Below, piece after piece: positions 29,399 to 62,514 of a stretch of 64,000 bases of DNA (position 1 is its first letter; each line of letters opens with the position of its first letter). The notes beneath the pieces are model-generated. The model searched no databases, had not been told where the DNA came from, and worked only from the letters and a program-made list of their open reading frames with translations. Source of the stretch: Thermomicrobiales bacterium. GTDB taxonomy: Bacteria > Chloroflexota > Chloroflexia > Thermomicrobiales > UBA6265. A program made the translations under genes and the position numbers. The stretch lies in NCBI GenBank assembly GCA_036558305.1, contig DATBFX010000341.1, positions 6,101-70,100 on the forward strand, written 5' to 3'.

Positions 29399-29465
29399 GT
29401 CAGGCGCTAGGCGTTAGGAGAACGAACCGTTTCGTGCGCCTAACGCCTAACGCCTAGCGCCTGAC
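29399..29465 (+). repeat. intercistronic hairpin A with stems of tandem 7-nt units (gcctaac/gcctagc/gcctgac)
   Basis: gtcaggcgctaggcgttagg (29399-29418) is the exact reverse complement of cctaacgcctagcgcctgac (29446-29465). An extra gcctaac unit sits in the 27-nt loop. It starts 3 nt after the E1beta stop and ends 16 nt before the E2 ATG; GGAGG at 29472-29476 lies outside the stem. Confidence 0.9.
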
Positions 29466-29481
29466 GCCTCCGGAGGCCCGT

Positions 29482-31489: not shown

Positions 31490-33109
31490 ATGATTCGGTT
31501 CAACCATTGCCGTGCGATCGTCTTCGCTGTCGTAGCGCTATGTCTATCACCAGTTCTTATGCAGACACACCCAGCCGTGGCCCAGGACCGCCCTGTCCTC
31601 CGCTTCGGCACCAATGCCGCCGATCTCTCGACCCTCGATCCCCACTACGCCTCCGGCACGCAGGACCGAACCGTCGTCGACATGCTCTTCAACGCGCTGG
31701 TCCGCTTCAAACCCGGCGACGCCTCGGTGATCGAACCGGATCTGGCAACCGCCGTCCCGGAACCGGTGATCGAAGGCGGGAAGCAGACCTGGACTTTCAC
31801 CCTCCGCGACGGGGTCGTGTGCCACCCGTGGGAGGGCGGAGAAGCCTATCCGCTGACGGCGGACGACGTGGTCTTCTCGCTTCAAAAGTCGGCGAATAAG
31901 GACAGCTCCGGGTATGCGGCCGACTACGCGGGGATGACGGTTGCCAAGGTCGACGACAAGATCGTCAAGATCACGATGGACGCTCCCCTCTCGCCGACCC
32001 TCTTCCTGCCGAAAGTCGCCAACTACAACGGCGGTTTCATCGTCTGCGCCAAGGCCGTCGAAGCACTCGGGCTCGACGGGTTCAAGACCCACCCGGTCGG
32101 CACCGGACCGTTTGTGTTCCAGTCCTACACCCCGCAGACCAGCGTCATCCTCACCGCCAACGACAACTACTTCCGCGGCGCGCCGAAACTCGGCGGGGTG
32201 GAAGTCCGCTACATGCCGGATGCGACGAGCCGCGAGCTGGCGCTCCAATCGGGCGAGTTGGATGCCGCGTCGGGCGTCAACGAGGCCCAGTGGGTCGACC
32301 GCATCAACGGCGAGGGCACGCTCAAGGCCGACGTCTTCGGTCCCGGCGAGGTCGCCTGGGTCAACCTGAACGTCACCAACCAGTACCTGTCCAAACCGCA
32401 GGTTCGCCAGGCGATCGCCTACGCCATCGACCGTGAGGAGCACCAGGCGCTCTACGGGTCGCCCGTCTCCGAAATCGTCTATTCGGTGGTACCGGCCTCG
32501 CTGATGCCGGGCGGGTTGACCCAGGAACAGGCCACCGCCGCTGGCGTTGACTATCCCCACAACATCGAGAAGGCCAAGCAACTGCTCACCGAGGCGGGGT
32601 ATCCAGACGGGTTCGAGATGACCCTGGTCACCAGCGAGATGCCGGCCTACCGCTCCAACTACGAAGTCCTCCAATCCGAACTGGCGAAGATCGGGATCAA
32701 GATCGACCTCCAGGTGGTCGATCATGCCACGATGCACGCCCAGATCCGGGAGGACGTCAACCCGATCGTGATCTACGTCGCGTACCGGCCGAATGCCGAC
32801 GTGTACCTGACCCAGTTCTTCTACTCGCCGTCGATCGTCGTGTCCGGCGCCTCGCCGGTGACCAACTTCAGCCACTACGGCGCGATCGACGACCTGATCC
32901 TCCAGGCCCGCGGCGAGACCGATCCCGCCGCGCAGGAAGAACTCTGGCGTCAGGCGAACACCCAGATCCTGAAGGACGTCGCCGCGATTCCGCTTCAGTA
33001 CCAGAATCAGGTCTACGCGCGCAATCCCAAGGTCGACTACGGACACGAGTTGGTCAAAGTCCTCGCCCTCTACCCGGGCATCGACGAAACGACCACGATC
33101 GCGTCGTAA
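31490..33109 (+). CDS. ABC transporter substrate-binding protein, family 5 (peptide/nickel type)
   Basis: Signal peptide MIRFNHCRAIVFAVVALCLSPVLMQTHPAVAQ. SBP_bac_5 pattern LRFGT...LDPHYA...NALVRFKPGD. Confidence 0.88.
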   Translation: MIRFNHCRAIVFAVVALCLSPVLMQTHPAVAQDRPVLRFGTNAADLSTLDPHYASGTQDRTVVDMLFNALVRFKPGDASVIEPDLATAVPEPVIEGGKQTWTFTLRDGVVCHPWEGGEAYPLTADDVVFSLQKSANKDSSGYAADYAGMTVAKVDDKIVKITMDAPLSPTLFLPKVANYNGGFIVCAKAVEALGLDGFKTHPVGTGPFVFQSYTPQTSVILTANDNYFRGAPKLGGVEVRYMPDATSRELALQSGELDAASGVNEAQWVDRINGEGTLKADVFGPGEVAWVNLNVTNQYLSKPQVRQAIAYAIDREEHQALYGSPVSEIVYSVVPASLMPGGLTQEQATAAGVDYPHNIEKAKQLLTEAGYPDGFEMTLVTSEMPAYRSNYEVLQSELAKIGIKIDLQVVDHATMHAQIREDVNPIVIYVAYRPNADVYLTQFFYSPSIVVSGASPVTNFSHYGAIDDLILQARGETDPAAQEELWRQANTQILKDVAAIPLQYQNQVYARNPKVDYGHELVKVLALYPGIDETTTIAS

Positions 33110-33113
33110 CGGA

Positions 33114-33219
33114 GGCGGCAAGGCGGCAAGGCGGCGAGGCGGCAAGGACGATAAGAGACCGACGGACAGCTCCCGGATTCCTATTCCCTGTTCCCTTGCC
33201 GCCTTGCCGCCTTGCCGCC
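33114..33219 (+). repeat. intercistronic hairpin B: (GGCGGCAA)x4 - loop - (TTGCCGCC)x3
   Basis: Left arm 33114-33147 is ggcggcaaggcggcaaggcggcgaggcggcaagg. Right arm 33194-33219 is ccttgccgccttgccgccttgccgcc. About 22 bp can pair perfectly. It starts 5 nt after the SBP stop and ends 14 nt before the permease ATG. Confidence 0.9.
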
Positions 33220-33233
33220 TCGATTGAACTCCT

Positions 33234-34175
33234 ATGCTCAGACACATCGTCCGACGGCTGCTGCTGGCGATACCGACCCTGCTGGCGGTCTTCACCATCA
33301 TTTTCGTCGTCGTTCGGGTCGCTCCTGGCGACCCGGCGACGGCCGTGCTCGGCGACAACGCGTCCAAGCAGGCGGTCGATGCGCTGCGCGAGCGGATGGG
33401 ACTCAACGAACCGCTCTGGAAGCAGTACCTGACCTTCCTTGCCGACCTCTCACGTGGCGATCTCGGGAAATCACTGAAAACCGGTCAGCCGGTCTGGTAT
33501 CAGATCCGATCCGCTTTGCCCCACACGCTGGAGCTCACCTTCGCCGCCATCTCGATCGGGCTGGCGATCGGCGTGCCGATCGGGGTCGTCACCGCCGTCC
33601 AGCGCAACCGCGCGCCCGACTACATCGGCCGCGTCGTCTCCCTCGTCGGTCTCTCGCTGCCGGCGTTCTACCTGGCCGTTCTGCTGATCTACTTCTTCGC
33701 TGTCAAGGTGAGTTGGTTCCCGGCCGTCGGCGCCCCGCCGCTCTCCGATCTCGGCGCCAATCTGCATCACCTCGTCCTCCCGGCCGTCACCCTCGGGTTG
33801 ATCGAAATGGCCTACATCGCCCGCATGACCCGCTCGGTGATGATCGCCGTCCTCAGCGACGACTACGTAAGGACGGCGCGAGCGAAGGGACTCCGGGAAT
33901 GGGTTGTCCTGGTCAGACACGCCCTGCGGGCCGGGTTGATCCCGATCGTCTCCCTCGTCGGCATCTTCGCGATCAGCTTGATCGGATCGTCGGTCCTGGT
34001 GGAGGAGGTCTTCGCCCGACCGGGGCTCGGCAAGCTGATGGTCGGCGCGACCAAGCAGAAGGACTACACGTCGTTGCAGTCGATCATGGTGGTCTACGCC
34101 TGCATCATCGTCGTCATCAACCTGATTACCGACATCCTCTATACGGCGATCGACCCGCGGGTTCGCTACTCGTGA
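33234..34175 (+). CDS. ABC transporter permease (DppB/OppB-like)
   Basis: MLRHIVRRLLLAIPTLLAVFTIIFVVVRVAPGDP. EAA-loop region YVRTARAKGL. Confidence 0.9.
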   Translation: MLRHIVRRLLLAIPTLLAVFTIIFVVVRVAPGDPATAVLGDNASKQAVDALRERMGLNEPLWKQYLTFLADLSRGDLGKSLKTGQPVWYQIRSALPHTLELTFAAISIGLAIGVPIGVVTAVQRNRAPDYIGRVVSLVGLSLPAFYLAVLLIYFFAVKVSWFPAVGAPPLSDLGANLHHLVLPAVTLGLIEMAYIARMTRSVMIAVLSDDYVRTARAKGLREWVVLVRHALRAGLIPIVSLVGIFAISLIGSSVLVEEVFARPGLGKLMVGATKQKDYTSLQSIMVVYACIIVVINLITDILYTAIDPRVRYS

Positions 34176-34212
34176 TCCCCGGAGTCGGCTGGGGGCGGAG
34201 GAGGGCCCGTCG

Positions 34213-35112
34213 ATGAGCGAATCGGCCGTCTCAAGCGGTGATTTGACCGGCACAGGCCGGCAGACCGACTACATCTCGGGTGGTCGGCGGGCGCTGCGGA
34301 CGTTCGCCCGCAACCGCACCGCAGTCGTCGGCGTCGGACTCATCTCGCTCCTCCTCCTGGTTGCCATCGCCGCGCCGCTCATCGCCCCCCACCACCCGCT
34401 CGACCAGAGTGTCCGCAACCGACTTGCCCCGCCGAGCGCGGACTACCCGCTCGGCCGCGACGACAAGGGACGCGACATCCTGTCGCGGGTGATCTTCGGG
34501 ACGCGGATCGCGCTCCAGGTCGGGGTCTTCTCGGTCCTCCTCGGCGGTGTGCTCGGTACCCTGATCGGTCTCACCGCCGCGTTCTTCGGCGGCAAGACCG
34601 ACGGCGCCCTGATGCGGTTGACCGATGTCCTCCTCTCCTTTCCCGACCTGATCACCGGTCTGCTCGTCCTCGCCGTCCTCGGTCCCGGTCTTTCCAAGAT
34701 GATCGTCGCCATCGGCTTGACCATCGCGCCTCGCTTCTCGCGAATCTCCTACGGATCGGCTCTTTCCCTGATGCGGCGCGACTTCGTCGACGCCGCCCGC
34801 ACGATCGGGGTCGGCAACTCGCGCATCCTGCGCGTCCACCTTTTGCCGAACGTCCTCGGGGAACTGCTGGTCTTCGGCAGTCTCTGGACCGCGTCGGCGA
34901 TCCGCCTCGAAGCCAGCCTCAGTTTCATCGGGCTCGGCGTTCAGCCGCCCACGCCGACCTGGGGTCAGATGATCCGCGAAGGCACACTCTACCTGACGAC
35001 CGTTCCCTGGTACTCGCTCGGCCCTGGTCTGGCGCTTTTGCTCGCCGTTCTCGCTTTCAACCTCGCCGGCGACGGGCTGCGTGACGCCCTCGATCCCCGG
35101 TCACGGTCCTGA
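34213..35112 (+). CDS. ABC transporter permease (DppC/OppC-like)
   Basis: GLISLLLLVAIAAPLIAPHHP, PLGRDDKGRDILSRVIFG and FVDAARTIGV. Confidence 0.9.
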   Translation: MSESAVSSGDLTGTGRQTDYISGGRRALRTFARNRTAVVGVGLISLLLLVAIAAPLIAPHHPLDQSVRNRLAPPSADYPLGRDDKGRDILSRVIFGTRIALQVGVFSVLLGGVLGTLIGLTAAFFGGKTDGALMRLTDVLLSFPDLITGLLVLAVLGPGLSKMIVAIGLTIAPRFSRISYGSALSLMRRDFVDAARTIGVGNSRILRVHLLPNVLGELLVFGSLWTASAIRLEASLSFIGLGVQPPTPTWGQMIREGTLYLTTVPWYSLGPGLALLLAVLAFNLAGDGLRDALDPRSRS

Positions 35113-36366
35113 CGCCACCGCGACGCGTTGCCACTCCACTATCCGCAACGGCGGCGCGATCCACAGCACCAGCGGCACCGCCAAATTGACGGCCGACAGC
35201 ACGATCAGGGTCTCTTGCAGACCAAACTGCTCCAGCATCGCGCCGTAGGCGACAATGCCAACCGACCGTGCCCCCGAGCTGAGTGCCATCAGACTGCCGA
35301 AGACCCGGCCGCGCATCGTCTCCGGGACCCGCTCCTGGAGGATGGTCATCCAGATCGGATTCGTCGGTTCCAGGAAGATGGCGTTGACCACGATCGACGC
35401 GGTGACGATCACCAGCGGCGGCAACGGGATCAGCACCCAAAACGTGAGCGCCCGTACGGCAAATCCGGTCACGATCGTGGTCCGCCTCGGCAATCGCGGC
35501 GCGAACGACAGAAACAGCACGTTGCCGATCAACGACCCCGCCGCCAGCGCGGCATACATGAAGCCCAAGTCGACGGCGCTGCCAAAGACTTCCTTCGCGT
35601 AGACCGGGAGCACGACCGAATAGATCGGTTCCGCCAGCAGATTCCCCAGCGCGAACGCCGCGATCATCCAGCGGATGAGCCGGTCGCCCCGCACGAAGCG
35701 CAAGCCGTCAAGCAACGATCCGGGACGGCCTCCCTGACCGGCGTCGGTGGTCGCCCCGTCCGTCTCGCGGCCGCGCGCCGGGACCCTGAGCGCGACGATG
35801 CCGGCGGAGACGAGGAAGGTCGCGGCGTCGATCCACATCACATTCGTCGGACTGAACGCCGCGATCAGGACGCCGCCGAGGGGCGGTCCGACCAACCCGG
35901 CGACCCGCGTCACCATCTGTGAGGACGCATTCGCGCGTTCGAGTTGCACCCCACCGAGTCGGGCAAGCTCCGGATAGAGACTCAGGCGGGCCGCCCAACC
36001 GGGAGCGTCGAGCACCGCGCCGAGGAAGACCAGGACGAGCAATTCCCAGAAGGCGAGACCCACCGTGTGGTAGAGCAAGGGGACCAGCGCCACGTTCACG
36101 GCGCTTGCCAAATCGGCGACGATGCTCGTCCGCTTGAATCCCAGGCGGTCGACGACGACGCCACCGACGATGCCACTCACCAGGACGGGGAGGGCGCCGA
36201 CGGCCGCCGTGACCCCCGTCTTGCCGGCGCTCCCGGTCGTTTGCAACACGAACCAGGGGATCGCAAGGTAGGTAAAAACGTTGCCGATCCCGGAGATCCC
36301 GTCGGCCGTCAGCAACGCGATGAACGGCGCCCGTCGTGGCGGTGTCGAGCCTGGCGAATCGATCAC
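35101..36366 (-). CDS. MFS transporter
   Basis: 421 aa, about 12 TM segments, MFS_3/EntS-like N-terminus FIALLTADGISGIGNVFTYLAIPWFVL. GTG start. The 3' end overlaps the convergent permease gene by 12 nt. Confidence 0.8.
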   Translation of the reverse strand: MIDSPGSTPPRRAPFIALLTADGISGIGNVFTYLAIPWFVLQTTGSAGKTGVTAAVGALPVLVSGIVGGVVVDRLGFKRTSIVADLASAVNVALVPLLYHTVGLAFWELLVLVFLGAVLDAPGWAARLSLYPELARLGGVQLERANASSQMVTRVAGLVGPPLGGVLIAAFSPTNVMWIDAATFLVSAGIVALRVPARGRETDGATTDAGQGGRPGSLLDGLRFVRGDRLIRWMIAAFALGNLLAEPIYSVVLPVYAKEVFGSAVDLGFMYAALAAGSLIGNVLFLSFAPRLPRRTTIVTGFAVRALTFWVLIPLPPLVIVTASIVVNAIFLEPTNPIWMTILQERVPETMRGRVFGSLMALSSGARSVGIVAYGAMLEQFGLQETLIVLSAVNLAVPLVLWIAPPLRIVEWQRVAVASGP

Positions 36367-36621
36367 TCATTCCTCGGGTGCGGGCGTGGCAATGACCGGG
36401 TGCATCCGCACGTTCGTTGCCAAGCGCAAACCCGCCGGAACCAGGATCGAGATTGCGCCGAGGGATGGGCCTGTGCACCCCAAGGCTGGTACCACCTGAG
36501 GGACGAACAGCCATCGACTTCGGTTGGGCAACCGGAGTACGTCAGTCCGGAAGGTTGGTAGCCCACGTGTCGCAAACCGTAATAGCGCAGCGTTGACACT
36601 CTTGGTCTAGGGCAACGTTCA

Positions 36622-37596
36622 TCACTCGCGCCGAACGGTAACTCGCTCGACCAGGTCGCTCATGGTCACCCGTGTACCACTTTTGGTGAGGACCCACCAT
36701 CGCCGCCCGCTTTTGAAGATGTACCAGCCCGGGAATCTGGTTCCGGCCTCCAAGGGTGGGCCGACCTCCTTGGACCCGGCACTCGACGTCTGCCGCCGCG
36801 GCGTCGTCGTCTTCACCGTCCATTCGCGGAGGCAGGCATGGGCCGTGGTGTTCTTGAATGGATGATCGCTCGGATAGCCCCGCAGGACGTCCTCGGCGAC
36901 GAAGGCCGGCACATCGGGAGCAGCGTACGTCGGCCCGGTGGGCGTCACCGGTCCCGGCTCCGGGCTGCCCATGCGTTTCCGCTCGTCGGTTCTGGCGGCG
37001 AACCATCGATCGGCGTAGATGTCCCAGGCCAGCCGGCCGCCGATCATCGTGTGGCGGAGCTTGTCGGGGCAGTTGTGGCGGTCCGGGTGTTCCGTCTCGC
37101 AGAACGCCGGACAGCCGGCGACGACCCAGTTGAAGTCCCAGTGCCGCTCCGGCTTGTCGATGTTCAGCCGCGCCGCTACCCGGCCCATGAAGTCGGCCGT
37201 GACCGTAATGACGCGATCGCGTCGACGGGGATCCGCCCACAGGTCGGCATCCTCGATCATCTCGCACGAAAAGCCGTTCATATTGCCGGGACCGCCACCG
37301 TCCGCCGCCTGCCAGGTCACCTCGTCGGCGGGGATCATCACCCAACACTCCCGGTCGTCGCACGTGGAGTGGTAGGACGCCTGCCGACCCTCGGCGCCGT
37401 TGAAGAGGTATTGGGCTTCGGAAGCCGCTGTGCTGTGTGGGTTTCCGTTGCCGTGCTGCACGCTGCGGCGAGGCATCATGGCCGGGATACCCGGGCGGTT
37501 CTGGGTCATCCACTCGGGCAAGATCTTGAGGTGGATCGGGTAGTCGGTCTCGAGCGGTCCGCCGGGGAGTCCCGGAACGGTCGTCGAGTTCGCCAT
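36622..37596 (-). CDS. N-acetylmuramoyl-L-alanine amidase (Amidase_2/PGRP fold), lysin-like
   Basis: VQHGNGNPHSTAASEAQYLFNG...ASYHSTCDD...WQAADGGGPGNMNGFSCE is the Amidase_2 zinc-amidase pattern. The ~130-aa C-terminal extension is of unknown type. Confidence 0.75.
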   Translation of the reverse strand: MANSTTVPGLPGGPLETDYPIHLKILPEWMTQNRPGIPAMMPRRSVQHGNGNPHSTAASEAQYLFNGAEGRQASYHSTCDDRECWVMIPADEVTWQAADGGGPGNMNGFSCEMIEDADLWADPRRRDRVITVTADFMGRVAARLNIDKPERHWDFNWVVAGCPAFCETEHPDRHNCPDKLRHTMIGGRLAWDIYADRWFAARTDERKRMGSPEPGPVTPTGPTYAAPDVPAFVAEDVLRGYPSDHPFKNTTAHACLREWTVKTTTPRRQTSSAGSKEVGPPLEAGTRFPGWYIFKSGRRWWVLTKSGTRVTMSDLVERVTVRRE

Positions 37597-38219
37597 GTCA
37601 CTCCCTCCGGTGTCATCGCGCAGGAGCGGAAACCGCGCGTCGGATCATGGCCGAGTGCCCTGAGTTCCTTTGGTCGTACATCCTAACGTACTCGGGCGGC
37701 CACATGTCCGCGCCGAGGGGAGATCGGCTCGTCGCTCGCCGCTGCGACTTCAGCGATCGGTTCCTGGCCACGGGGGCCCCAACACGCTGCGTTTGCCCGG
37801 CCGAACCCGGCAATGGTGTTCGCCGCGGCGATGCGTCCTCTCTTGCCGTCTATGCTCTTCGCCGGGGGCCGGTGCCGTCCTCGCCGTGGTGCGTGCGCGT
37901 CGCCGTAGCCGTCGCGGTTGTGTCCACAAGCGGTGCCCGTACCGCGAGCGGCTCGTCCCGATCCGGCACGTCGTCATCGGCGGCGTGCCGCTCGACGCGG
38001 TGTAGGGAAGCGGCCGGATGCAGATGGTGCGACGGGTTCGACGGGTCGGGGCCGCGGCGGTGGATCGCGGACCGGCACGGCATGACCGTCGGGGCGGTCT
38101 GCGCGGAGGCGGCGGGCGTTGCACGAGGTAGGAAATCCGCCCCCGGCGATTCGATCTGTACCCGACCACGCTACCGGTTGCAGCGTAGCCGGGCTCGACC
38201 ACCGTCGCCGTTGTGATGT

Positions 38220-38573
38220 TTACCTTTCGCGGAGGAGACCAGGTCCGCGGGGCGGCGGCGGCAGAATGATGTGCTCTTTCACGAGCCAGAACGTCCCCGT
38301 CGTCTTGGCATAGCGCGGCACGTCTTCCCAGGCCGCCGCAACTTCCGGCGATTGCCCGGCGCGAAGGAATGCCTCCTCGTCGTCGTACCACTGCTCGACG
38401 AACGCCTCGGTCTCGAGCTCGCCTTGAATCCGCCGAGTGACCTCGGAGACGACGTAGCCCCGCAGACCCGGCGCCTTGGCCGAGATCGGCGCGTGGACGT
38501 CCAACCAGTACCGAATGAACTCCTCGGGCGTGAAATCTTCCCGCCGATACGCCGTTCCGATCGCTTTGATCAC
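38220..38573 (-). CDS. EthD-family protein
   Basis: The last 117 codons of track ORF 38220..39428: (V)IKAIGTAYRREDFTPEEFIRYWLDVHAPI...EQWYDDEEAF. The GTG at 38573 overlaps the upstream TGA (GTGA). Confidence 0.7.
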   Translation of the reverse strand: MIKAIGTAYRREDFTPEEFIRYWLDVHAPISAKAPGLRGYVVSEVTRRIQGELETEAFVEQWYDDEEAFLRAGQSPEVAAAWEDVPRYAKTTGTFWLVKEHIILPPPPRGPGLLRER

Positions 38574-39274
38574 TCCCGTTCTCCTTTCGGGTCGACGCCC
38601 AACCGCTCCAACAACGCGTCCGCCGGCGTTGCTCGCGCACCACCTTCGCCGGACTTCGACGGGTAGCGATACTGCCGGACGAAACCGGTAATCTGCTCCT
38701 GAACGTGCCCGTTCCACACCCCACGAAGCAGTGCCGTTCCGTGCTCGTGAGTCGGAAACGTGACTTCCAGCGCCATGCCAATCGACGCGCGGCGTAGATT
38801 GCCGGTTGACTCCCGCGAGACCGGATCGTTGGTACCAACAAGGAACAGTTTGGGTACACCGGCGCCACGAGGCACACGAGAGAACCCTTCGGGTGCCATT
38901 GCCGACAGCAACACCACTCCGTCGAGCTCCGTCCGATCGGCGGCCCACAGGAGATGTTCGGCGGTCGCACCCGCCGCGATTGCCACGACGAACGGCGCTC
39001 CGGCGGCCCGCGCCATGCGAATCCACGAGACGACGTCGTCGACCGCCTTGTCTTCGCACCAATCGCCGTCCGACGCGCCGTGTCCCCGCAGATCGACGGC
39101 GAGAACCGAGAGTTCGGCGGCCAGCAAGAAGGGGATCAGTGGCCGCCAGCGGTCGAGATCTTCTTCGGGACCGACATCGTGCAGGAGCACGACCCGAGCG
39201 GAACCGCCCGACCACAACTCTCCGCGGAGGGCGCAGCCGTCGCCGGCGACGATCGCGAGCGGTAGCGGCGTCAT
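38570..39274 (-). CDS. alpha/beta hydrolase family protein
   Basis: The ATG at 39274 overlaps the upstream ATPase stop (ATGA). VVLLHDVG and VDLRGHGASDG. No clear GxSxG seen, so the catalytic status is unknown. Confidence 0.6.
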   Translation of the reverse strand: MTPLPLAIVAGDGCALRGELWSGGSARVVLLHDVGPEEDLDRWRPLIPFLLAAELSVLAVDLRGHGASDGDWCEDKAVDDVVSWIRMARAAGAPFVVAIAAGATAEHLLWAADRTELDGVVLLSAMAPEGFSRVPRGAGVPKLFLVGTNDPVSRESTGNLRRASIGMALEVTFPTHEHGTALLRGVWNGHVQEQITGFVRQYRYPSKSGEGGARATPADALLERLGVDPKGERE

Positions 39275-40299
39275 GCGACGGCCAGGTCGGCGGGCATCGG
39301 CGCCGAGTTGAAGCAGGCAACCCAGTGGTCCGACCCCGGTGCGGCCGGTTCGAGTGGCGGAACCTCCTGGCGACAGACGTCGAGCGACCGGAAGCAACGA
39401 CCGGCGAATCGACAGGCCGGACGCGCATCCATGAGGTTCGCCTCGCCGGGCAAGTGGATCCGACCGGCCGGGCGACCTTTCAAGAGCGATGGCACGGAGG
39501 AGAGGAGAGCCTGGGTGTACGGGTGCAACGGGTTGCGGAACAGCTCGTCCGCGGGCGCGAGCTCGACGAGTTTGCCCAGGTACATCACGGCGACCCGATC
39601 GGCCATGTGGCGAACGACGCTCATATCGTGGCTGATGAAGAGGTAGGTCAGGCGCAACCGGTCCTGCAATTCCCGCAGCAGGTTGAGGATCTGGCTCTGC
39701 ATCGAAACGTCGAGGGCGCTGACCGGTTCGTCGGCGACGATGAACGTCGGGTTGACCGCCAACGCACGGGCGATACTCAATCGCTGCCGCTGCCCGCCGG
39801 AAAACTCGTGCGGGAAGCGTTCCGCGGCGTCGGCCGGAAGGTGGACCAAATGCAACAGCTCGGCGATCCGCGTTTGCTGCTCCGCTTTTCCCAGTCCCAG
39901 GTGCCCCATTCCCTCGGCGATGATCGCCTCCGCCTTCATCCGCGGGTCGAGCGAATCGAACGGGTCCTGGAAGATGATCTGAGCCCGCTGCCGGAAATCC
40001 CGCAACTTGCCGGGTGGCAAACGCAGTACGTCGTCATCACGAAAACGGAGGCTCCCATCGGTCGGTTCGATCAGGCGGAGGATGAGCCGCGCCAGGGTCG
40101 ATTTGCCGGACCCCGATTCGCCGACGAGCGCGAGCGTCTCTCCCTCACGGATGTCGAACGAGACGTCGTCGACGGCCGAAACCCATTTCGTGGCACGACC
40201 GAAGAAGTCCCAGGCAACGGGGAACCGCTTCGTCAGCCCCTGGACCGCGAGCAGCGAATCAGCGGACGAAGGGGGTTGGGTTGTGGCAGCGGAGATCAT
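39271..40299 (-). CDS. ABC transporter ATP-binding protein (DppF/OppF-like)
   Basis: ATG at 40299. Walker A GESGSGKST, signature FSGGQRQR, Walker B FIVADEP. C-terminal oligopeptide-type extension with CRFAGRC. Confidence 0.9.
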   Translation of the reverse strand: MISAATTQPPSSADSLLAVQGLTKRFPVAWDFFGRATKWVSAVDDVSFDIREGETLALVGESGSGKSTLARLILRLIEPTDGSLRFRDDDVLRLPPGKLRDFRQRAQIIFQDPFDSLDPRMKAEAIIAEGMGHLGLGKAEQQTRIAELLHLVHLPADAAERFPHEFSGGQRQRLSIARALAVNPTFIVADEPVSALDVSMQSQILNLLRELQDRLRLTYLFISHDMSVVRHMADRVAVMYLGKLVELAPADELFRNPLHPYTQALLSSVPSLLKGRPAGRIHLPGEANLMDARPACRFAGRCFRSLDVCRQEVPPLEPAAPGSDHWVACFNSAPMPADLAVA

Positions 40300-41308
40300 G
40301 GTCGGTGTCGATCCTCGCGAGGTCCGGGTGCGTTTCGACGCACGGCGCGATCCGGTTCGGACAACGGGCCGCAAAGCGGCAGGCGGTCGGCATCGCCCAG
40401 AGTTCCGGGACGCGACCGGGAATGACGTGCAGCGTCGGCTGCCGCGTCGCCAGGTACGGCATGCTCTTCAGCAAACCCTGCGTGTACGGGTGCTGCGGAT
40501 TCTCGAAAATCTGCCGGGTCGTCCCGATCTCGACGATCTCCCCCGCATACATCACCGCGACCCGATCCGCGATCTCGTTGACGACGCCGAGATTGTGGGT
40601 AATCAGGATCACGCTCAAACCGAGTTCCTGCCGTAGACTGGCGATCAAGTCGAGGATCTGCGCCTGGATCGTGACGTCGAGCGCCGTCGTCGGCTCGTCC
40701 GCGAGCAACAACTTCGGGTTCATCACCAGCGCCAGCGCCAGCATCACCCGCTGCCGCATCCCACCGGAAAACTGGTGCGGGTAATCGTCAAGCCGCCGTG
40801 CCGCGTCCGGAATTCCGAGGCGGTCGAGCATCGCCACCGCCCGCGTCCGCGCTTCGTGTTTGCTCACCGCCGCGTGCGCCCGAACCACCTCGGCAATCTG
40901 CGATCCGACCGTAAACGCCGGATCGAGCGCGGTCATCGGCTCCTGAAACACCATCGCGATCTCGTTGCCACGCACCTTTCGCATCTCGCCGCCGCTGAGG
41001 CGAAGCAGGTCGCGCTCCCCGAACCGGACAGTTCCCTCGGCCACCGCCGCGGCCGGCGGCAGCAGCCGCATGATCGAGAGCGCCGTCATCGACTTCCCGC
41101 ACCCGCTTTCGCCGACCAGACCGAGGATCTCGCCAGTATTCACGGTAAGCGAGACGCGATCGACGGCGCGCAGGACGCGGCGGCGACCCTGGATGACGGT
41201 GGTGAGGGCGTCGATGGTGAGGAGGGGAGCGACCGGCACGGTCCCCCTTTCCCGCGTAGCGAGCGGGGTGTCCTCGAGGCCGCGGCCGGGGGGGTGAGGG
41301 TCGCGCAT
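40259..41308 (-). CDS. ABC transporter ATP-binding protein (DppD/OppD-like)
   Basis: Walker A GESGCGKSM, signature FSGGMRQR, Walker B LLLADEP, C-terminal CRFAARC. Start is the ATG at 41308 or the GTG at 41317. Confidence 0.9.
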   Translation of the reverse strand: MRDPHPPGRGLEDTPLATRERGTVPVAPLLTIDALTTVIQGRRRVLRAVDRVSLTVNTGEILGLVGESGCGKSMTALSIMRLLPPAAAVAEGTVRFGERDLLRLSGGEMRKVRGNEIAMVFQEPMTALDPAFTVGSQIAEVVRAHAAVSKHEARTRAVAMLDRLGIPDAARRLDDYPHQFSGGMRQRVMLALALVMNPKLLLADEPTTALDVTIQAQILDLIASLRQELGLSVILITHNLGVVNEIADRVAVMYAGEIVEIGTTRQIFENPQHPYTQGLLKSMPYLATRQPTLHVIPGRVPELWAMPTACRFAARCPNRIAPCVETHPDLARIDTDHDLRCHNPTPFVR

Positions 41309-41310
41309 CG

Positions 41311-42237
41311 TCACCACCGCCGCAGCCTCGGGTCGAACACGTCGCGCAGACCGTCGCCGAGGGTGTTCAACCCGAGCACAATCAAGGCAATGGCAATTCC
41401 TGGAATGATTGCCACCCAGGGATCGTTGTAGAGGTAGTTGCGTCCGTTAGCGATCATCTGCCCCAGACTCGGCGTCGGCGGCTGTGCGCCGAGACCGATG
41501 AACGACAAGCCGGCCTCGGCGATGACCGTCACGGCGATGTAGTACGAGGCCATCACGAGCGAGGTCGCGATCGTGTTGGGTACCAGATGCCGGAGGATCA
41601 CCTTCCAGGCCGGTACCCCCAGTGCGCGGGCGGCCTCGACGAACGCCCGCTCCCGCAGCGAGAGCGTCTGGGCACGGATGATCCGCGCAAACCCGGCCCA
41701 GTTGACGACGCTGACGGCGAGGATCACCGCCGGAATCCCCGGTTTGAACATGCCGGCGAAGATGACCGCGACCAGGATCACCGGGAAACCCCAGGTGAGG
41801 TCGATCAAGCCACTGATGATCCGATCGACCGGGCCACGGAAGTACCCGGCCACGGCCCCGAGAATCAAGCCGAACGACATCGAGGCGGCAGTGACCACCA
41901 TCCCGATCAGCAGCGAGATCGCCATGCCGGCGGCGATACGCCAGGCGGTGTTCCGACCGAGGTTGTCGGTACCCAGCAGACGCCCCTGGCTGAACGGTTT
42001 GATCAGCGCGGCGTTCACATCCTGGTCGAGATAGAGGTGCCTGAATCCCGGCGTCGCCAGGAGCACGGTACCGATCGCGGCGACGAAGAGACAAGCGAGC
42101 GTTATCGCTCCCCCGATCAGCGTGAGCTTGTTCGCCCACAACGGCGCGAGCCGGTCGCCGAGCCCGCGGCCCGGACGCAGCGGGGTTCGTTCCTCGGCGA
42201 AATCTTCGAAGTGGAGCGGAACCGGCTCGCTGGCCAT
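41311..42237 (-). CDS. ABC transporter permease (DppC/OppC-like)
   Basis: The ATG at 42237 shares one base with the upstream TGA. LGTDNLGRNTAWRIAAG and FVEAARALGV. Confidence 0.88.
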   Translation of the reverse strand: MASEPVPLHFEDFAEERTPLRPGRGLGDRLAPLWANKLTLIGGAITLACLFVAAIGTVLLATPGFRHLYLDQDVNAALIKPFSQGRLLGTDNLGRNTAWRIAAGMAISLLIGMVVTAASMSFGLILGAVAGYFRGPVDRIISGLIDLTWGFPVILVAVIFAGMFKPGIPAVILAVSVVNWAGFARIIRAQTLSLRERAFVEAARALGVPAWKVILRHLVPNTIATSLVMASYYIAVTVIAEAGLSFIGLGAQPPTPSLGQMIANGRNYLYNDPWVAIIPGIAIALIVLGLNTLGDGLRDVFDPRLRRW

Positions 42238-43166
42238 CAGCCGCTCCCGTGCTGGCGGGTCCGTGGATCGGCCCACTGCTGCCCGATGTCGGCGAGCAGA
42301 TTGAAGAAGATGACCGCCAGGGTAAGCATCAGCGCCAGCGTCTGCGCCAGCGTGTAGTCCCGTTTCAGCACACTGTTGACGAGTTGCGAGCCGAGCCCGG
42401 GCCAGCGGAAGATCGTCTCCACGATCAGGGTGTACCCAAGCAGCGTCCTGAGCATGATGCCGGCCAGCGCGATCACCGGCGGCAGCGCATTCCGGAGCAC
42501 GTGGATCCAGACGATGCGCGCTTCCGGCAGACCTTTCGCGTAGAGCGTCCGCACGTAATCTTTGTTGAACTCTTCGAGCATCGACGACCGGACGACGCGC
42601 AGGTTGATCGCGATCGCCTCGGCTGCAAGGACGAAAGCCGGCAGGATCAAATGGCGAAGGTCACCCGAACCGGCGACCGGCAACCAGCGGTGCTCGACCG
42701 AAAAGAGTTGAATCAGCAACACGGCGAGGAAGAAGTTGGGGATGGCCATCCCGAGCACGGCCAGCAGCATCGTGCCCTGATCGATGAGCGTGTTGCGCTT
42801 CCAGGCCGCCAATACCCCAAGCGGAATCGCCGTCAGGTAGGTCATCAGCGCCGCCGCGGACGCCAAGAAGACGGTGTTCCAGATCGCTTTGCCGATCAAT
42901 TTGTTGATCGGCTGCCCATTGACGAACGAGACACCGGGATCGCCCGTAACCAGGTTCTTGACGAAAACCACGTATTGGACGGGCAACGGCCGATCCAGCC
43001 CCAGCTTCTCGCGCAACTGCGGGGCGAGGAATTCCCGGTTAACCGGATTGGTCAGAACGTCCTCGACACTCCCCGGCGCTACCCGCAGCCCGTAGAAGAT
43101 CACGAGCGAGGCAACAAAGAGCAACAGCAGCGAGTAGAGCGTCCGGTGGATGATGAAGGTCAACAT
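42237..43166 (-). CDS. ABC transporter permease (DppB/OppB-like)
   Basis: MLTFIIHRTLYSLLLLFVASLVIFYGLRVAPG and YVRTLYAKGL. Confidence 0.9.
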   Translation of the reverse strand: MLTFIIHRTLYSLLLLFVASLVIFYGLRVAPGSVEDVLTNPVNREFLAPQLREKLGLDRPLPVQYVVFVKNLVTGDPGVSFVNGQPINKLIGKAIWNTVFLASAAALMTYLTAIPLGVLAAWKRNTLIDQGTMLLAVLGMAIPNFFLAVLLIQLFSVEHRWLPVAGSGDLRHLILPAFVLAAEAIAINLRVVRSSMLEEFNKDYVRTLYAKGLPEARIVWIHVLRNALPPVIALAGIMLRTLLGYTLIVETIFRWPGLGSQLVNSVLKRDYTLAQTLALMLTLAVIFFNLLADIGQQWADPRTRQHGSG

Positions 43167-43178
43167 TTCCGTTTGAGA

Positions 43179-43322
43179 GGCGGCAAGGCGGCAAGGCGGG
43201 AACCCGCCAGAGCGGGTGATGGCGGCAAGGATTTTCGAGCGGGCACCCAGTTCTGGCGCTCAATAGGCTCAATCATCCTTCGACCACTCCCCGCCGCCTT
43301 GCCGCCTTGCCGCCTTGCCGCC
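43179..43322 (-). repeat. intercistronic hairpin C: same GGCGGCAA/TTGCCGCC unit as hairpin B
   Basis: Plus-strand ggcggcaaggcggcaaggcgg (43179-43199) pairs over 21 bp with ccgccgccttgccgccttgccgccttgccgcc (43291-43322). A third ggcggcaagg at 43221-43230 allows an alternative pairing. In the sense of the minus-strand genes the element begins at the SBP stop and ends 12 nt before the permease ATG. Confidence 0.9.
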
Positions 43323-45007
43323 TACGACTCCACCCAAACGTCGTTGTACTGCGGGTAGAGCATCGTTTGCGTCGGCATCCAGCCGTGCACCTTCTTGTGG
43401 TTGACCCAGATCGCGTTCGAGGTCACCAGCGGAATCTTCGGCACTTGCTCGGCCCAGATCAACTGGGCCTTGCTCGCCGCGGCCTTGAGCTCCTCGTCGC
43501 TGCCGGCCTTCTGCCAGTCGTCGAAGGCCTTCAACAAATTGGGGATACCGCCGCTGTACTCCATGCTCGGGACGATCGAGTTGAAGAGCAGGATCACGTC
43601 CATCGGCGAGGACCAGAGCCACTCGTAGCCGAACGAATCGGGTGGGGAATCCTTGCTGTTGAGTTTGGTTCCGAATTCGGGATTCTGGTAACTCTCGACC
43701 TTCATGTCGGCGCCGACCTTCGCCAGCATACCGGCGACCGCCTCGCTGATCTGGGCGCCGAACGTCTGTCCGGACCAGTTCAAGTGCGTCCAGGAGAGCT
43801 TGACGCCGTTCTTGGCGCGGATCCCGTCCGAACCCTTCGCCCAGCCCTGGTCGTCGAGCATCTTGTTGGCGAGATCGAGGTCGAACTTGTTGAACTGCTC
43901 GACACCCGGGTCGTACCACTTCCAGTTGGACGCGATCGGTCCTTGCGTGGCGACCGCGTGACCGAAGTAGATCGCCTTGACGAGTCCTTCACGGTCGATT
44001 GCGTGGGAAATTGCCTGGCGCACCGCCAACTGGTCGAATTCCAGGTCCTTGCGCAGCCAGTTCAACGCAAGGAACGAGTTCGCCGGGTTCGCCCACTCCT
44101 GGACAACGAGATCGGGATTGCCCTTGAGGCGGTCGACGTCCTGCCCCGCCGGGTTCTTGATCGCGTCGACGTCGCCGGCTTCCATCTCATTCGCTCGGTT
44201 CGCCGCCTCGACGATCGGCACCCACTTCAACTCGTCGATGTAGGCCGGTCCCTTATTCTGGATGAACGGGCAGGCGGTACCCGGATAATCCGCCCACTTC
44301 GCCATGCGAACCTGACTACCGGGTGTAAATTCCGTCAGGGTGAACGGACCGGTGCCGTCTGCCGTCGTGGCGCCGTAGGTGTCGCCGGCAGCGGCGCGGG
44401 CGGCCTGGTTGTGGATCATCGAGTACTCGGTCGCCAGGGTCTCCGGGAACGCGGCGAACGGGTGCGCCATGGTCACGATCACCGTGTTGCCGTCGCCGGC
44501 TTTGACATCGGTGACGGTATTCCAGAAGATGGCGTTCTGACCGGTCTTGGGATCGCGGAACAGGTCGAAGTCCTCGACCACGTTCGCGTTGGTGCAGGGC
44601 GTGCCCGAGTGGAACTTCAATCCGTCCCGGATCTTGATTGTCCAGGTCAAGCCGTCGTCGGAGACGGTCCAGGAGTCGGCCAGCGCCGGAACGATCTTAC
44701 CGTCCGGGTCGCGGAGCATCACGTATTCGTAGAGCGCATTGTATCCCGGATCGGCCCAGCCGGAGAGTACCGGGTCCATCTTCGTGAAGTCGCGGTCGTA
44801 CCCTTCGGTGAACGTGCCGCCGGTTTGCGGCGTGTCCTGTGCTGCCGCGAGCCGAGGCGAAGCCGCTGCCAGGAGTGACGCCGCCGCCGGGGCGGAGACG
44901 CCGAGCAGCGCCGCACGCTTGACGAACTCGCGTCGACTCAACCCGGCCCGCCGGTACTCGTCGACCAGAGATCTCAGGCCGGTTCGTGGATCGATCCTGT
45001 CGCTCAC
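43322..45007 (-). CDS. ABC transporter substrate-binding protein, family 5, Tat-type signal
   Basis: LSRREFVKRAALLGVSAPAAASLLAAASPRLAAAQD is a twin-arginine-like leader. The SBP_bac_5 body follows. Confidence 0.88.
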   Translation of the reverse strand: MSDRIDPRTGLRSLVDEYRRAGLSRREFVKRAALLGVSAPAAASLLAAASPRLAAAQDTPQTGGTFTEGYDRDFTKMDPVLSGWADPGYNALYEYVMLRDPDGKIVPALADSWTVSDDGLTWTIKIRDGLKFHSGTPCTNANVVEDFDLFRDPKTGQNAIFWNTVTDVKAGDGNTVIVTMAHPFAAFPETLATEYSMIHNQAARAAAGDTYGATTADGTGPFTLTEFTPGSQVRMAKWADYPGTACPFIQNKGPAYIDELKWVPIVEAANRANEMEAGDVDAIKNPAGQDVDRLKGNPDLVVQEWANPANSFLALNWLRKDLEFDQLAVRQAISHAIDREGLVKAIYFGHAVATQGPIASNWKWYDPGVEQFNKFDLDLANKMLDDQGWAKGSDGIRAKNGVKLSWTHLNWSGQTFGAQISEAVAGMLAKVGADMKVESYQNPEFGTKLNSKDSPPDSFGYEWLWSSPMDVILLFNSIVPSMEYSGGIPNLLKAFDDWQKAGSDEELKAAASKAQLIWAEQVPKIPLVTSNAIWVNHKKVHGWMPTQTMLYPQYNDVWVES

Positions 45008-47548: not shown

Positions 47549-47690
47549 GCGGACAGACGGACAGACGGACAGACGGACGGACGGAGGACTTATGAACGCC
47601 AACGCAACGACCGACTCAGGTCTAGCACCGGGCAAGGCAGACGCGACTCGTTCTCCGCTGTCCGACTGTCCGTCTGTCCGCCTATCCGTC
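47549..47690 (+). repeat. hairpin D: (GGACAGAC)x4 - loop - (GTCTGTCC-type)x4
   Basis: Left arm gcggacagacggacagacggacagacggacggacgga lies directly after the TAG at 47546-47548. Right arm 47655-47690 is ccgctgtccgactgtccgtctgtccgcctatccgtc. 17 bp pair perfectly, plus 7 more after one mismatch. The annotated ATG at 47592 lies in the loop. Confidence 0.9.
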
Positions 47691-49181
47691 TTGCGTGAGG
47701 GCTTCGACTATCCCTTGAGCCGGCTCGATCCGTTCGGGGCGCACATCGACCCGCCGAGTGTCGCGCTCTACGAGACGATCGTCGTCAAGGGACCGGACGG
47801 AACGGCGCAGCCGGGGCTGGCCGAATCGTGGCAAATCTCGCGAGATGGGCTCGAATGGCGCTTCCGCCTCCGACCGGACGCACCGTTCCACTCGGGCGCA
47901 CCCTGCGACGCCGACGCGGTGGTCGCCGCGCTGGATCCCCTCCGGTACGACCACTTCAGTCCGCGACGCCAACTCTGGTACTGGGATCCGGTGGACACGG
48001 TCCGCGCCGAAGAGACCGACACCGTCGTCTTTACGCTCCATCACCCGTACGTGCGCCTGCCGTCTCTCCTCTGGGGAACCCACACGGCCATCTACAACCA
48101 AACACTTCGCTCGCAGGAACCCGAACGCTTCGGTTACGAACTCGCCGACGGGACCGGGCCGTTCCGATTCGTGAGCTGGTCGAAGGAACGCGTCGTCCTC
48201 GAAAGGTGGGCGGACTACCCCGGTTCGGCGGCTCCGTTCCTCGCGACGGGCGGTCCCGCCAGGCTGGACCGGATCGAATGGACGATGCTGCTCGATCCCG
48301 CGGAGCGCGTCGCGGCGCTGGACCGGGGCGACGTGGACTGCATCCACGGTCCACGTTACGCCGACGTCCCCCGCTTGGAGGCCGACTCGCGCTTCCACGT
48401 CGTCCGGTTCAGCCAGGCCGCGAACGCCTACCTGGCCCTCAACTGGCAGCGCACCGACCTCGGTTTCGATGACGTTCGCGTCCGCCGCGCCATCTCCGCC
48501 GCGATCGACCGCCCCCGTCTCGTCGAGGACGCGCTCCTCGGGTACGGCGTCCCGACCTTCGGTCCGCTCTCACCCGGCGGCGAGTTCTACGATCCCGCCG
48601 TCGAATCCGGTCGCGGCCACGATCCCGCCGCCGCCGGTCGCCTCCTCGACGAAGCCGGTTGGCAACTCGGTGCGGACGGTATCCGATCGAAGGGGGAGGA
48701 ACGCCTCTCCTTCGAGTGCGTGATCCAGGACGACGCGATCCATCAGCAGATCGCGATCGGTCTGCGCGACCAGTTGCGCTCCGTCGGTATCGTCCTCGAT
48801 CTCAGACCGATCCTGACCTTCAGCGGCTTCTACCAGACGGTCGCGAGCGGACCGGCCAGCTTCATCAACAAATGGCTCTGGCAAGACCCGGTCGACGCCG
48901 CGATCGGCTTCACCGCCTCCTGGGGCCGCCCGTTCCCGAACTGGCAGCACGCCGCGATCCCGCGTCTCGACGATGCCTACCGCGCCTGGCTTCAGGCCGA
49001 GACACTGGAAAGCCTCCAGGCCGCAGCGACGCAGGCCCAACTCATCGTTGCCGACGAACTGCCCTATATCCCGCTGCTGGTCCCGCAGGACGTCTGGGTT
49101 CATTCGACCCGCGTCACCGGCTGGGAGCCGGCCCAGGCGATCCTCTACCCGTTCTATCATCGGACCGAGGTGCGCGGGTGA
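47592..49181 (+). CDS. family-5 solute-binding-protein homologue without signal peptide
   Basis: The SBP_bac_5 body starts at LREGFDYPLSRLDPFG...ALYETIVVKGPDG. The 33 residues before it (from the ATG at 47592) are hydrophilic and partly encoded by hairpin D. The TTG at 47691 is an alternative start. Confidence 0.75.
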   Translation: MNANATTDSGLAPGKADATRSPLSDCPSVRLSVLREGFDYPLSRLDPFGAHIDPPSVALYETIVVKGPDGTAQPGLAESWQISRDGLEWRFRLRPDAPFHSGAPCDADAVVAALDPLRYDHFSPRRQLWYWDPVDTVRAEETDTVVFTLHHPYVRLPSLLWGTHTAIYNQTLRSQEPERFGYELADGTGPFRFVSWSKERVVLERWADYPGSAAPFLATGGPARLDRIEWTMLLDPAERVAALDRGDVDCIHGPRYADVPRLEADSRFHVVRFSQAANAYLALNWQRTDLGFDDVRVRRAISAAIDRPRLVEDALLGYGVPTFGPLSPGGEFYDPAVESGRGHDPAAAGRLLDEAGWQLGADGIRSKGEERLSFECVIQDDAIHQQIAIGLRDQLRSVGIVLDLRPILTFSGFYQTVASGPASFINKWLWQDPVDAAIGFTASWGRPFPNWQHAAIPRLDDAYRAWLQAETLESLQAAATQAQLIVADELPYIPLLVPQDVWVHSTRVTGWEPAQAILYPFYHRTEVRG

Positions 49182-49297: not shown

Positions 49298-50092
49298 ATG
49301 GCAGGACCGCGCTTGAGCGGCAGGACGGCGGTCATCACGGGCGGCGGGAGCGGATTCGGCCGGGCAACCGCGCGCCGCTTCGCCGAGGAAGGAGCCTCCA
49401 AAATCGTCCTCGCGGACATCCGCAAGGAGAAAGCGGACGAGGTCAAAGCCGAGGTGGAAGCACTGGGCGCGCAAGCGCTGGCGGCACGATGCGACGTCGG
49501 CGAGGTCGCCGCCTGCGAGAGACTGGTCGAAGACACCCTCACCTTCGTCGACGGCAAACTCGACATCCTCGTCAGCAACGCCGCCCCCTTCCACGGCCCC
49601 GAGTCGTTCCTCGAATTCCGCGACCAGACCTGGTTCGAGGACGTCGCAATCAACCTGACCGCTTCCTATGTCCTGGGTCAGCGTTGCGCCCGCGCGATGG
49701 CCAAGACCGGTGGCGGCGCGATCCTCTACACCACCTCGATCAATTCCCAGGGCGCCGGCGCCGGTTTCGCCTCCTACTGCGCGACCAAGGCCGGCATCGT
49801 CGGACTCCTCCAGGTGATGGCCGTCGAACTCGCCAAATACAACATCCGCGTCAACGCCGTCGGCCCCGGCCCGGCCGACACCCCTCGCTCCGTTCAACTC
49901 GTCGGCGAGGAGACGATGGAGCAATTCCGCAAGAAGTTCCCCGTCGTCCCCCTCAACCGGCTCGCCAGCGCCGATGACGTCGCCAACGCCTTCGTCTACC
50001 TCGCCTCCGACGAAGCCTCGTACGTCACCGGCCAAAACCTTATGGTCTGCGGCGGAGTCACAGCGTACGTCTACAACGTACCGGAGGAGTGA
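49298..50092 (+). CDS. short-chain dehydrogenase/reductase (SDR)
   Basis: AVITGGGSGFGRA (TGxxxGxG), NAAP, and the YCATKAG catalytic Tyr-Lys. ATG after AAAGGAG. Confidence 0.9.
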   Translation: MAGPRLSGRTAVITGGGSGFGRATARRFAEEGASKIVLADIRKEKADEVKAEVEALGAQALAARCDVGEVAACERLVEDTLTFVDGKLDILVSNAAPFHGPESFLEFRDQTWFEDVAINLTASYVLGQRCARAMAKTGGGAILYTTSINSQGAGAGFASYCATKAGIVGLLQVMAVELAKYNIRVNAVGPGPADTPRSVQLVGEETMEQFRKKFPVVPLNRLASADDVANAFVYLASDEASYVTGQNLMVCGGVTAYVYNVPEE

Positions 50093-50154
50093 GACGGACA
50101 GACGGACAGTAGAACGAGCCATTTCCGTCTGTCCGTCTGCCCGTCTGCCCGTCC
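50092..50154 (+). repeat. hairpin E: GGACAGAC-type units
   Basis: agacggacagacgg (50092-50105, starting at the last base of the SDR stop) is the exact reverse complement of ccgtctgtccgtct (50125-50138). The right arm continues gcccgtctgcccgtcc to 50154. The next ATG is at 50175, with GGAG outside the stem. Confidence 0.85.
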
Positions 50155-59613: not shown

Positions 59614-59747
59614 GGAACAGACGGACAGACGGACAGACGGACCAAGTCGACGACGAAGTCGCGATCACGCTTGTTACGACTGACGACCGACGGCTGACGG
59701 CTCTCCCTGTTCCGTCTGCCCGTCTGCCCGTCTGTCCGTCTGCTTCC
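59614..59747 (-). repeat. hairpin F: GGACAGAC-type units, spanning the 3' end of the Fur-family gene
   Basis: Plus-strand ggaacagacggacagacggacagacggacc (59614-59643) pairs with gttccgtctgcccgtctgcccgtctgtccgtctgcttcc (59709-59747), 15 bp perfect plus 7 more. The Fur-family stop (59674-59676) lies in the loop, and arm 59709-59747 is translated as ...KQTDRRADGQTEQ. Confidence 0.88.
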
Positions 59748-62510: not shown

Positions 62511-62514
62511 TTGC

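Follow-up and report, generated by a model that had tools for sequence, protein, structure and literature searches.

The 64,000-nucleotide (nt) stretch of contig DATBFX010000341.1 analyzed here, which we call the window, comes from a soil bacterium. Its genome is an 8.14-Mb draft metagenome-assembled genome (MAG) of 634 contigs with 67.5% G+C, and the nearest public relatives of this genome are Thermomicrobiales MAGs. The window carries two operons for ATP-binding cassette (ABC) transporters, operon B on the plus strand and operon C on the minus strand. In each of them a long hairpin fills the junction between the gene for the solute-binding protein (SBP) and the gene for the first permease. 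We find that these hairpins, B and C, belong to a large family of tandem-unit hairpins that is strongly enriched at SBP-permease junctions, and we suggest that a stem-loop is favored at this position.

The two hairpins of the window

Operon B and its hairpin comprise the following features.
31490-33109, + strand: solute-binding protein gene, SBP_bac_5, 539 amino acids (Pfam, E 1.9e-68; open reading frame list), stop codon TAA at 33107-33109
33114-33147, + strand: 5' arm of hairpin B, consisting of GGCGGCAA twice, GGCGGCGA, GGCGGCAA and GG
33148-33193, + strand: loop of hairpin B, 46 nt
33194-33219, + strand: 3' arm of hairpin B, (TTGCCGCC)x3.25
33234-34175, + strand: first permease, BPD_transp_1 (Pfam, E 6.7e-41)
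34213-35112, + strand: second permease, BPD_transp_1 with OppC_N (Pfam)

The left arm of hairpin B amounts to (GGCGGCAA)x4.25, with GGCGGCGA as one of its units, and the pairing reaches further out through GA/TC at 33112-33113 and 33220-33221. In the 3' part of the loop, CCTATTCCCTGTTCCC is a relic of the (TGTTCCC) unit known from other copies. The fold energy is -82.3 kcal/mol, with a z score of -10.1 against dinucleotide shuffles. The sequence 3' of the hairpin is CGATTGAACTCC, which has no U run of the kind seen in an intrinsic (Rho-independent) terminator. Operon B (34213-36366 region) has an SBP gene and two permease genes without an ATPase gene, and a convergent MFS transporter gene comes directly next.

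Operon C is read from the minus strand, and its features are given in the order of transcription.
43322-45007, - strand: solute-binding protein gene, SBP_bac_5, 561 amino acids (Pfam, E 4.1e-75; sequence)
43293-43323, - strand: 5' arm of hairpin C as transcribed, (AGGCGGCA)x3.9
43203-43231, - strand: small inserted hairpin (CCCGC-CAGA-GCGGG on the + strand, 43203-43216) and an inner unit copy
43178-43202, - strand: outer part of the 3' arm of hairpin C as transcribed, TTGCCGCC units (array 43178-43199)
42237-43166, - strand: first permease, BPD_transp_1 (Pfam, E 7.9e-41)
41311-42276, - strand: second permease, BPD_transp_1 (Pfam)
40259-41317 and 39271-40374, - strand: two ATPase genes, ABC_tran with oligo_HPY (Pfam)

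The first repeat unit of hairpin C shares nucleotides with the stop codon TAG of the SBP gene (+ strand coordinates 43322-43324). The description of this hairpin in an initial annotation of the window needs one correction. The paired arrays are there, but the 3' arm is not uninterrupted, since the small extra hairpin and then the inner unit copy break it. The loop is 94 nt long, the fold energy is -91.0 kcal/mol (z -7.2 against dinucleotide shuffles), and the sequence that follows as transcribed, CTCAAACGGAAA, has no U run as in an intrinsic terminator either.

The description of the pair otherwise holds. Both hairpins are built on the GGCGGCAA unit, both lie at SBP_bac_5-to-BPD_transp_1 junctions as assigned by Pfam, and both fold far better than shuffled sequences. 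Their tight spacing is confirmed, in that hairpin B starts 4 nt past the SBP stop and ends 14 nt ahead of the permease ATG (33234), and hairpin C overlaps the stop and ends, with its far arm, 11 nt before the permease start codon (43164-43166). The loops are indeed without likeness to each other when read by eye, with no alignment. Further, the 16-mer GGCGGCAAGGCGGCAA, which spans two units, occurs nine times in the window at no more than one mismatch, against 0.01 expected.

The idea that B and C are a special pair has to be given up. They are two among about 45 hairpins with GGCGGCAA, a unit that forms 86 arrays in the genome, and among 28 classified copies, junctions of other types account for 20. 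Direct copying from one of the two junctions to the other, which the initial annotation had considered, also finds no support. The closest relative of hairpin C is on contig C393 (3157-3330) and contains the same inserted mini-hairpin, which hairpin B is without, and the binding proteins of the two operons are only 27% identical. Since the arms are nearly perfect while the proteins have diverged to this extent, the hairpins are much younger than the gene duplication. We suggest from these comparisons that the B and C junctions gained their family members separately, with no indication of B-to-C copying, and that the likely source of both hairpins is copying from other copies of the repeat family.

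Tandem-unit hairpins across the genome and at orthologous junctions

An inverted-repeat scan of the genome gave 884 hairpins with a stem of at least 16 bp. The stem is periodic in 297 of them, with a period of 7 nt (198), 8 nt (97) or 9 nt (2), and it is these that we call tandem-unit hairpins. The family is present in high copy number, is extragenic and often lies within operons, with 201 of the 297 hairpins in same-strand gaps.

We then compared gene junctions, limiting all comparisons to same-strand (co-directional) gene pairs. The gene calls were made for this analysis; they are GC3-based (G+C at third codon positions), have about 80% coverage and are approximate, and some of the gaps classed as divergent or inside are miscalls. 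Families were assigned with hidden Markov models built from the genome, which has about 110 SBP_bac_5 genes. The counts are as follows.
SBP_bac_5 to permease: tandem-unit hairpin in 26/56 (46%), any hairpin of at least 16 bp in 40/56
Sugar-type SBP to permease: tandem-unit hairpin in 6/23, any hairpin of at least 16 bp in 12/23
All SBP families to permease: tandem-unit hairpin in 32/81, any hairpin of at least 16 bp in 52/81
Other junctions touching an ABC gene: tandem-unit hairpin in 39/385
Junctions without an ABC gene: tandem-unit hairpin in 130/3312
Other same-strand junctions: tandem-unit hairpin in 142/3342 (4.2%)

The association between hairpin and junction, which had been proposed from B and C, is non-random. 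A tandem-unit hairpin is found at 46% of the SBP_bac_5-to-permease junctions and at 4% of the other same-strand junctions (odds ratio (OR) 19.5, p 3e-20), so that the genome's other SBP-permease junctions also hold these hairpins in strong excess. The GGCGGCAA unit alone behaves in the same way, with 8/79 SBP-permease junctions against 13/3319 others (OR 29, p 1e-8). Although most copies sit elsewhere, the rate per junction at unrelated junction types is thus not a similar one. In addition, 12 of the 16 seemingly empty SBP_bac_5 junctions have shorter strong stem-loops, and about 52/56 (about 93%) therefore carry a stem-loop of some sort. The earlier interpretation is partly supported, in a broader form that concerns the whole repeat family genome-wide and not the B/C pair specifically. 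In genomes G012 and G016 together, stems of at least 10 bp are present at 17/23 SBP-permease junctions, two of them tandem-unit, as raw counts with no matched background.

Conservation at this junction is one of position. Relatives of binding protein B are encoded at the 20 loci that we examined, which come from Chloroflexota, Methylomirabilota, Rokubacteria and other groups. Each locus has a stem-loop immediately 3' of the SBP stop codon, and the stem-loop sequences are unrelated. The junction falls within the lowest 2% of 60-nt folding windows in 20/20 loci and is the single best window in 13/20. Compared with L006, L010 and L012, the stem of one locus (L014) has changed in a compensatory manner from G-C to A-T. 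No repeats are present in the hairpins of other phyla, which are short stem-loops of an ordinary kind. The junction C orthologue of a genome from the same genus (L045, G001:C132) has a tandem-unit hairpin built on (GGCAGTA)n instead, which points to turnover of the unit at a fixed site. More distant relatives have ordinary hairpins at junction C, among them a classical GC stem followed by TTTTTT in G019. Nine orthologous junctions, among which two hairpin types are mixed, gave no common consensus fold.

Unrelated hairpins at orthologous junctions are the expected outcome of selection for structure at that position. It looks as though structure at the SBP-permease junction is selected and the local repeat family supplies it in this genome. 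Because the hairpins of distant phyla are unrelated and one stem has changed in a compensatory manner, the structure seems to be kept independently of the tandem-unit family; by these comparisons, the stem-loop at this junction would be older than the tandem-unit repeat.

About a dozen unit families prevail among the tandem-unit hairpins, including ACAGACGG (40), AAGGCGGC (29, with 10 variants), ACCGGCT (26) and AAGGCGG (24). In every unit family the order of the arms is invariant (for example 40/40 and 29/29), with no case of the reverse order; in most of them the first arm is the one rich in G or in purines. Since such an element reads identically on both strands, equal polarity relative to transcription is automatic. 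Many loops hold unpaired half-arrays of other units, which obey the same arm-order rule. The family also enters coding sequence in frame and sits 5' of genes in divergent gaps.

The hairpins are also linked to a gene family. Four of the long "loops" are homologous genes, and all 12 PF05635 genes of the genome (23S_rRNA_IVP, four-helix-bundle) lie within inverted tandem 7-8-nt arms, each with a different unit. These genes are at C353:1934-2436, C161:15657-16215, C196, C149, C613, C1, C257, C371, C538, C233, C279 and C227, and their proteins are 30-75% identical to one another. Ten of the 12 enclosing units match major hairpin families; the chance probability of finding 10 gene-bearing copies in 10 different unit families is only 0.04. 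Two of the gene-bearing hairpins, with the units GGCGGCAA (C353:1934-2436) and AGTGGCA (C161), are themselves at SBP-permease junctions. Five related genomes have the same hairpin packaging around most of their PF05635 genes, and one such gene of G016 shares its unit with a hairpin that lacks a gene and lies at an SBP-permease junction. Neither loop of B and C holds a gene, PF05635 included. Gene-less hairpins might derive from the gene-bearing copies by internal deletion. Subterminal likeness to the gene-bearing copy is greater within than across families only for GGCGGCAA (18.2 against 13.1), a comparison confounded by some array sequence in the reference segment. B and C are at best gene-less relatives of the PF05635-bearing hairpins.

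Other repeats were seen in the window and elsewhere in the genome. A hairpin of (CGGACAGA)n and (TCCGTCTG)n at 47550-47691 of the window lies directly 5' of a third SBP_bac_5 gene, whose called start (47592) falls within the hairpin and whose next gene encodes a short-chain dehydrogenase, not a permease. A (AGACGGAC)n hairpin at 50092-50153 separates dehydrogenase and hydrolase genes, a (ACAGACGG)n hairpin is found at 59617-59743, and an (AGTCGTC)n hairpin at 62384-62511 separates the ATPase and ABC-3 permease genes of a ZnuA-type operon. Two solo arrays have no partner arm: (AAGCTCG)x3.9 at 61565-61591, which ends one base before the start of an ABC ATPase gene, and (CGCCTAA)x4.7 at 29437-29469, which separates the genes for E1-beta and E2 of a 2-oxoacid dehydrogenase. 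Elsewhere in the genome, (GAGCTTC)n hairpins are seemingly translated in frame within LuxR-type STAND regulators (C229:12871-15312 and C446:5500-8040), giving peptides that include ELRASSFELE and RSSKLEALDG. The tandem-unit repeats push called gene starts too far upstream. Since many contigs start or stop inside arrays (for example C17, C65, C318, C342, C353, C409, C466, C558 and C585), the assembly is fragmented by the repeats, which must be more numerous than our count.

A connection to the transposases that accompany repetitive extragenic palindromes (REPs), known as RAYTs, was considered and rejected for the tandem-unit family, as none of the five PF01797 (Y1 transposase) matches is flanked by tandem-unit arms. 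One of these genes, at C571:4209-4944, has GTAGGGGAGCGCCCCGTGCGCTCCCG hairpin doublets (GTAGGGGAGCGCC-type REP) on both sides. It looks like a classical REP-RAYT pair, distinct from the tandem-unit family, and its REP type fills some SBP-permease junctions (C426 and C457). A separate non-periodic family, GTAGGGG..CGTG..CCC, fits a single imperfect palindrome with a GTAG-type head.

A possible role in the messenger RNA

The explanation that we favor, with moderate confidence, places the action of the stem in the mRNA, where RNase III would cut it, 3' exonucleases would be held up by it, or both, with an excess of binding-protein message as the result. Hairpins B and C would be gene-less members of a dispersed palindromic family with arms of inverted arrays of a 7- or 8-nt unit. 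Such elements would settle in the few nucleotides that separate a stop codon from the next ribosome-binding site, and their retention would be favored after SBP genes because a stable stem-loop is useful at that junction. One RNA would be transcribed across the operon, and its nearly perfect stem of 25-35 bp would be a target of RNase III, an obstacle to 3' exonucleases, or the two combined. The SBP message would then survive longer than the message for the permeases and ATPases, and the binding protein would be made in excess. From the anatomy, the repeat family, the enrichment and the conservation of position rather than sequence, all of which are observed, we infer the action in RNA, the nuclease and the protein ratio. 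The anatomy is compatible with a stem acting in RNA, though it is not proof, and an RNase III gene is present in the genome.

Several observations weigh against this explanation. The copies at SBP junctions do not differ from copies elsewhere in arm length, loop length or energy, and the majority of family members are at junctions that have nothing to do with transport. In G007, where the same unit is found, most sites are single arrays and SBP-permease junctions account for only 1/20. Gaps between convergent genes are depleted of tandem-unit hairpins (20/1064, OR 0.34, p 3e-7), a depletion that the non-periodic REP-like hairpins do not have; thus the family is unlike a general 3'-end stabilizer, and the bulk of its copies are not 3'-end elements of the usual kind. 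Sense and antisense do not differ in folding energy or in G-U counts, so that there is no signature of the transcribed strand. Without an excess of G-U pairs or of stability on that strand, complementarity is kept at the DNA level.

The uniform arm length, loop length and energy, and the lack of a transcribed-strand bias, are also what favors the view that selfish or mutational palindromes pile up wherever they are harmless. The gap between SBP and permease genes would then be merely permissive and the enrichment would reflect tolerance. The in-frame copies, those 5' of genes in divergent gaps and the fast turnover of units between relatives fit this view as well. However, it does not account for the unrelated strong hairpins that distant phyla hold at orthologous junctions, one with a compensatory change, nor for the stem-loop of some family at about 93% of this genome's SBP_bac_5-permease junctions. 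We consider tolerance unlikely on this evidence.

A second alternative is a partial transcription terminator, or attenuator, in which the polymerase sometimes stops at the hairpin and fewer transcripts reach the permease genes. The outcome would be identical to that of differential mRNA decay, and the orthologue in G019, with its T run directly after a GC stem, shows what such a junction could look like. The tandem-unit hairpins are of another make. Five or more T among the 8 nt that follow are seen in only 2% of them (mean 1.6 T), and they are depleted at convergent gene ends, which is where terminators belong. The absence of a U tract 3' of the hairpins and this same depletion led us to reject a classical terminator, and we regard partial termination as quite unlikely.

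The hairpins could also act on translation. Among those in same-strand gaps, 62% begin -3 to +5 nt from the stop codon, and the median distance from their end to the next start is 18 nt. A stem placed 0-5 nt past the stop could stall the terminating ribosome, giving less of the upstream protein, or could join stop and start for translational coupling. For E. coli, Liang, Rudd and Deutscher reportedly described in 2015 an effect of REPs that lie within 15 nt of a stop codon. By analogy, the hairpins at B and C could hinder translation termination of the binding protein instead of raising its amount, which is a further point against a role in message excess. However, a reduced binding protein is the reverse of what such operons need, and the closeness to stop and start is explained equally well by insertion into very short spacers with the stop and the ribosome-binding site preserved. 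A translation device is improbable in our judgment.

A role at the DNA level, with the arrays binding a four-helix-bundle or nucleoid protein or forming cruciforms, would suit the complementarity that is equal on both strands, the arm order that is fixed per unit family (40/40, 29/29) and the enclosure of each of the 12 four-helix-bundle genes by its own unit, but it is highly improbable, since nothing ties it to the SBP-permease junction specifically and other phyla have short, ordinary, repeat-free stem-loops at the orthologous junctions.

An extension of message control by the stem can be imagined from the PF05635 genes. Each PF05635 protein would recognize the unit that encloses its own gene, and the matching gene-less hairpins would be unit-specific intercistronic valves that set the ratio of upstream to downstream product through protein binding or RNase III cutting. 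We give this idea very little credence. If it were true, at least eight SBP-permease junctions with GGCGGCAA would form one co-controlled set.

The excess of binding-protein message that we favor is of interest because protein ratios within one operon are understood mainly from a few cases in E. coli. Here, a genome has about 110 Opp/Dpp-type SBP genes, and almost all of its SBP-permease junctions have a stem-loop, close to half of them from one repeat family. Thus, the genome is a natural replicated experiment on hairpin-mediated stoichiometry outside Proteobacteria. It also offers a possible cellular use for the tandem-heptamer and tandem-octamer hairpins, which are widespread and unexplained, and for their four-helix-bundle gene partners. 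On the practical side, such repeats break short-read assemblies and distort called gene starts.

Comparison with known systems

The REP elements of E. coli and Salmonella, and the bacterial interspersed mosaic elements (BIMEs) that they form, are likewise high-copy palindromes directly after the binding-protein gene of an ABC operon (malE-malF, hisJ-hisQ). The effect proposed there, reportedly in the 1987 work of Newbury and colleagues, is likewise that the upstream message is stable and that binding protein is made in excess. Hairpins B and C, as stem-loops between the SBP and the first membrane component within one operon, match the malE-malF layout. There are clear differences as well. A REP/BIME palindrome is single, imperfect and about 20-40 nt long, and it carries a GTAG head, whereas tandem 7-8-nt units without any conserved head form the arms here. 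Unlike in the REP-RAYT system, the tandem-unit hairpins are not the repeats that flank RAYT-like genes, and unlike REP/BIME they are depleted between convergent genes.

Two other families of small repeats are found in operons. The Correia/NEMIS elements of Neisseria are co-transcribed in operons, and their hairpins are RNase III substrates that alter the stability of the flanking mRNA. Defined inverted repeats form their termini, their target duplication is TA, and they have no tandem 7-8-nt arms. Mycobacterial interspersed repetitive units (MIRUs) fill intercistronic gaps and touch the adjacent stop and start codons; they are direct repeats of 40-100 bp, again without tandem 7-8-nt arms.

In E. 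coli, REPs follow dppA, mglB, thiB and artJ, and transcripts that bear REPs are stabilized (PMC10100675). Repeats are also noted for the malE-malF gap (PMC6906923, its reference 20). The convergent GGGAATC heptamer arrays of Xanthomonas can form stem-loops (Rehm et al. 2015, PMC4692102). These arrays are mostly intergenic, mostly between same-strand genes, less than 50 bp from the stop and mostly transcribed, and they share with our genome the paired convergent G-rich heptamer arrays with the G-rich arm first (PMC4692102). That paper reads the arrays as G-quadruplex formers, with one unit per genome, draws no link to transport operons and leaves four-helix-bundle genes unmentioned (PMC4692102). 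Paired repeat sites have also been described in Geobacter (PMC2700814). Our literature search gave no report tying such elements to SBP-permease junctions.

The four-helix-bundle genes connect the family to the intervening sequences of 23S rRNA (Coxiella, Leptospira; S23p). The insert in the 23S rRNA of Coxiella burnetii has a nearly perfect terminal stem of 28 bp with tandem heptamers, beside a PF05635-family gene, and it is the nearest published case to the genes enclosed by hairpins here (Warrier et al. 2016, PMC4990558). RNase III cuts inside this stem, and the upstream rRNA fragment is then the more abundant one (PMC4990558). A long stem of tandem units together with a PF05635 gene is what these sequences share with our genome (12/12 genes here). 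They are gene-bearing and lie in rRNA, whereas B and C are gene-less and lie in predicted mRNA. The functional principle is already known. New are the vehicle, hairpins of tandem units associated with four-helix-bundle genes, and the extent, about 93% of the SBP_bac_5-to-permease junctions.

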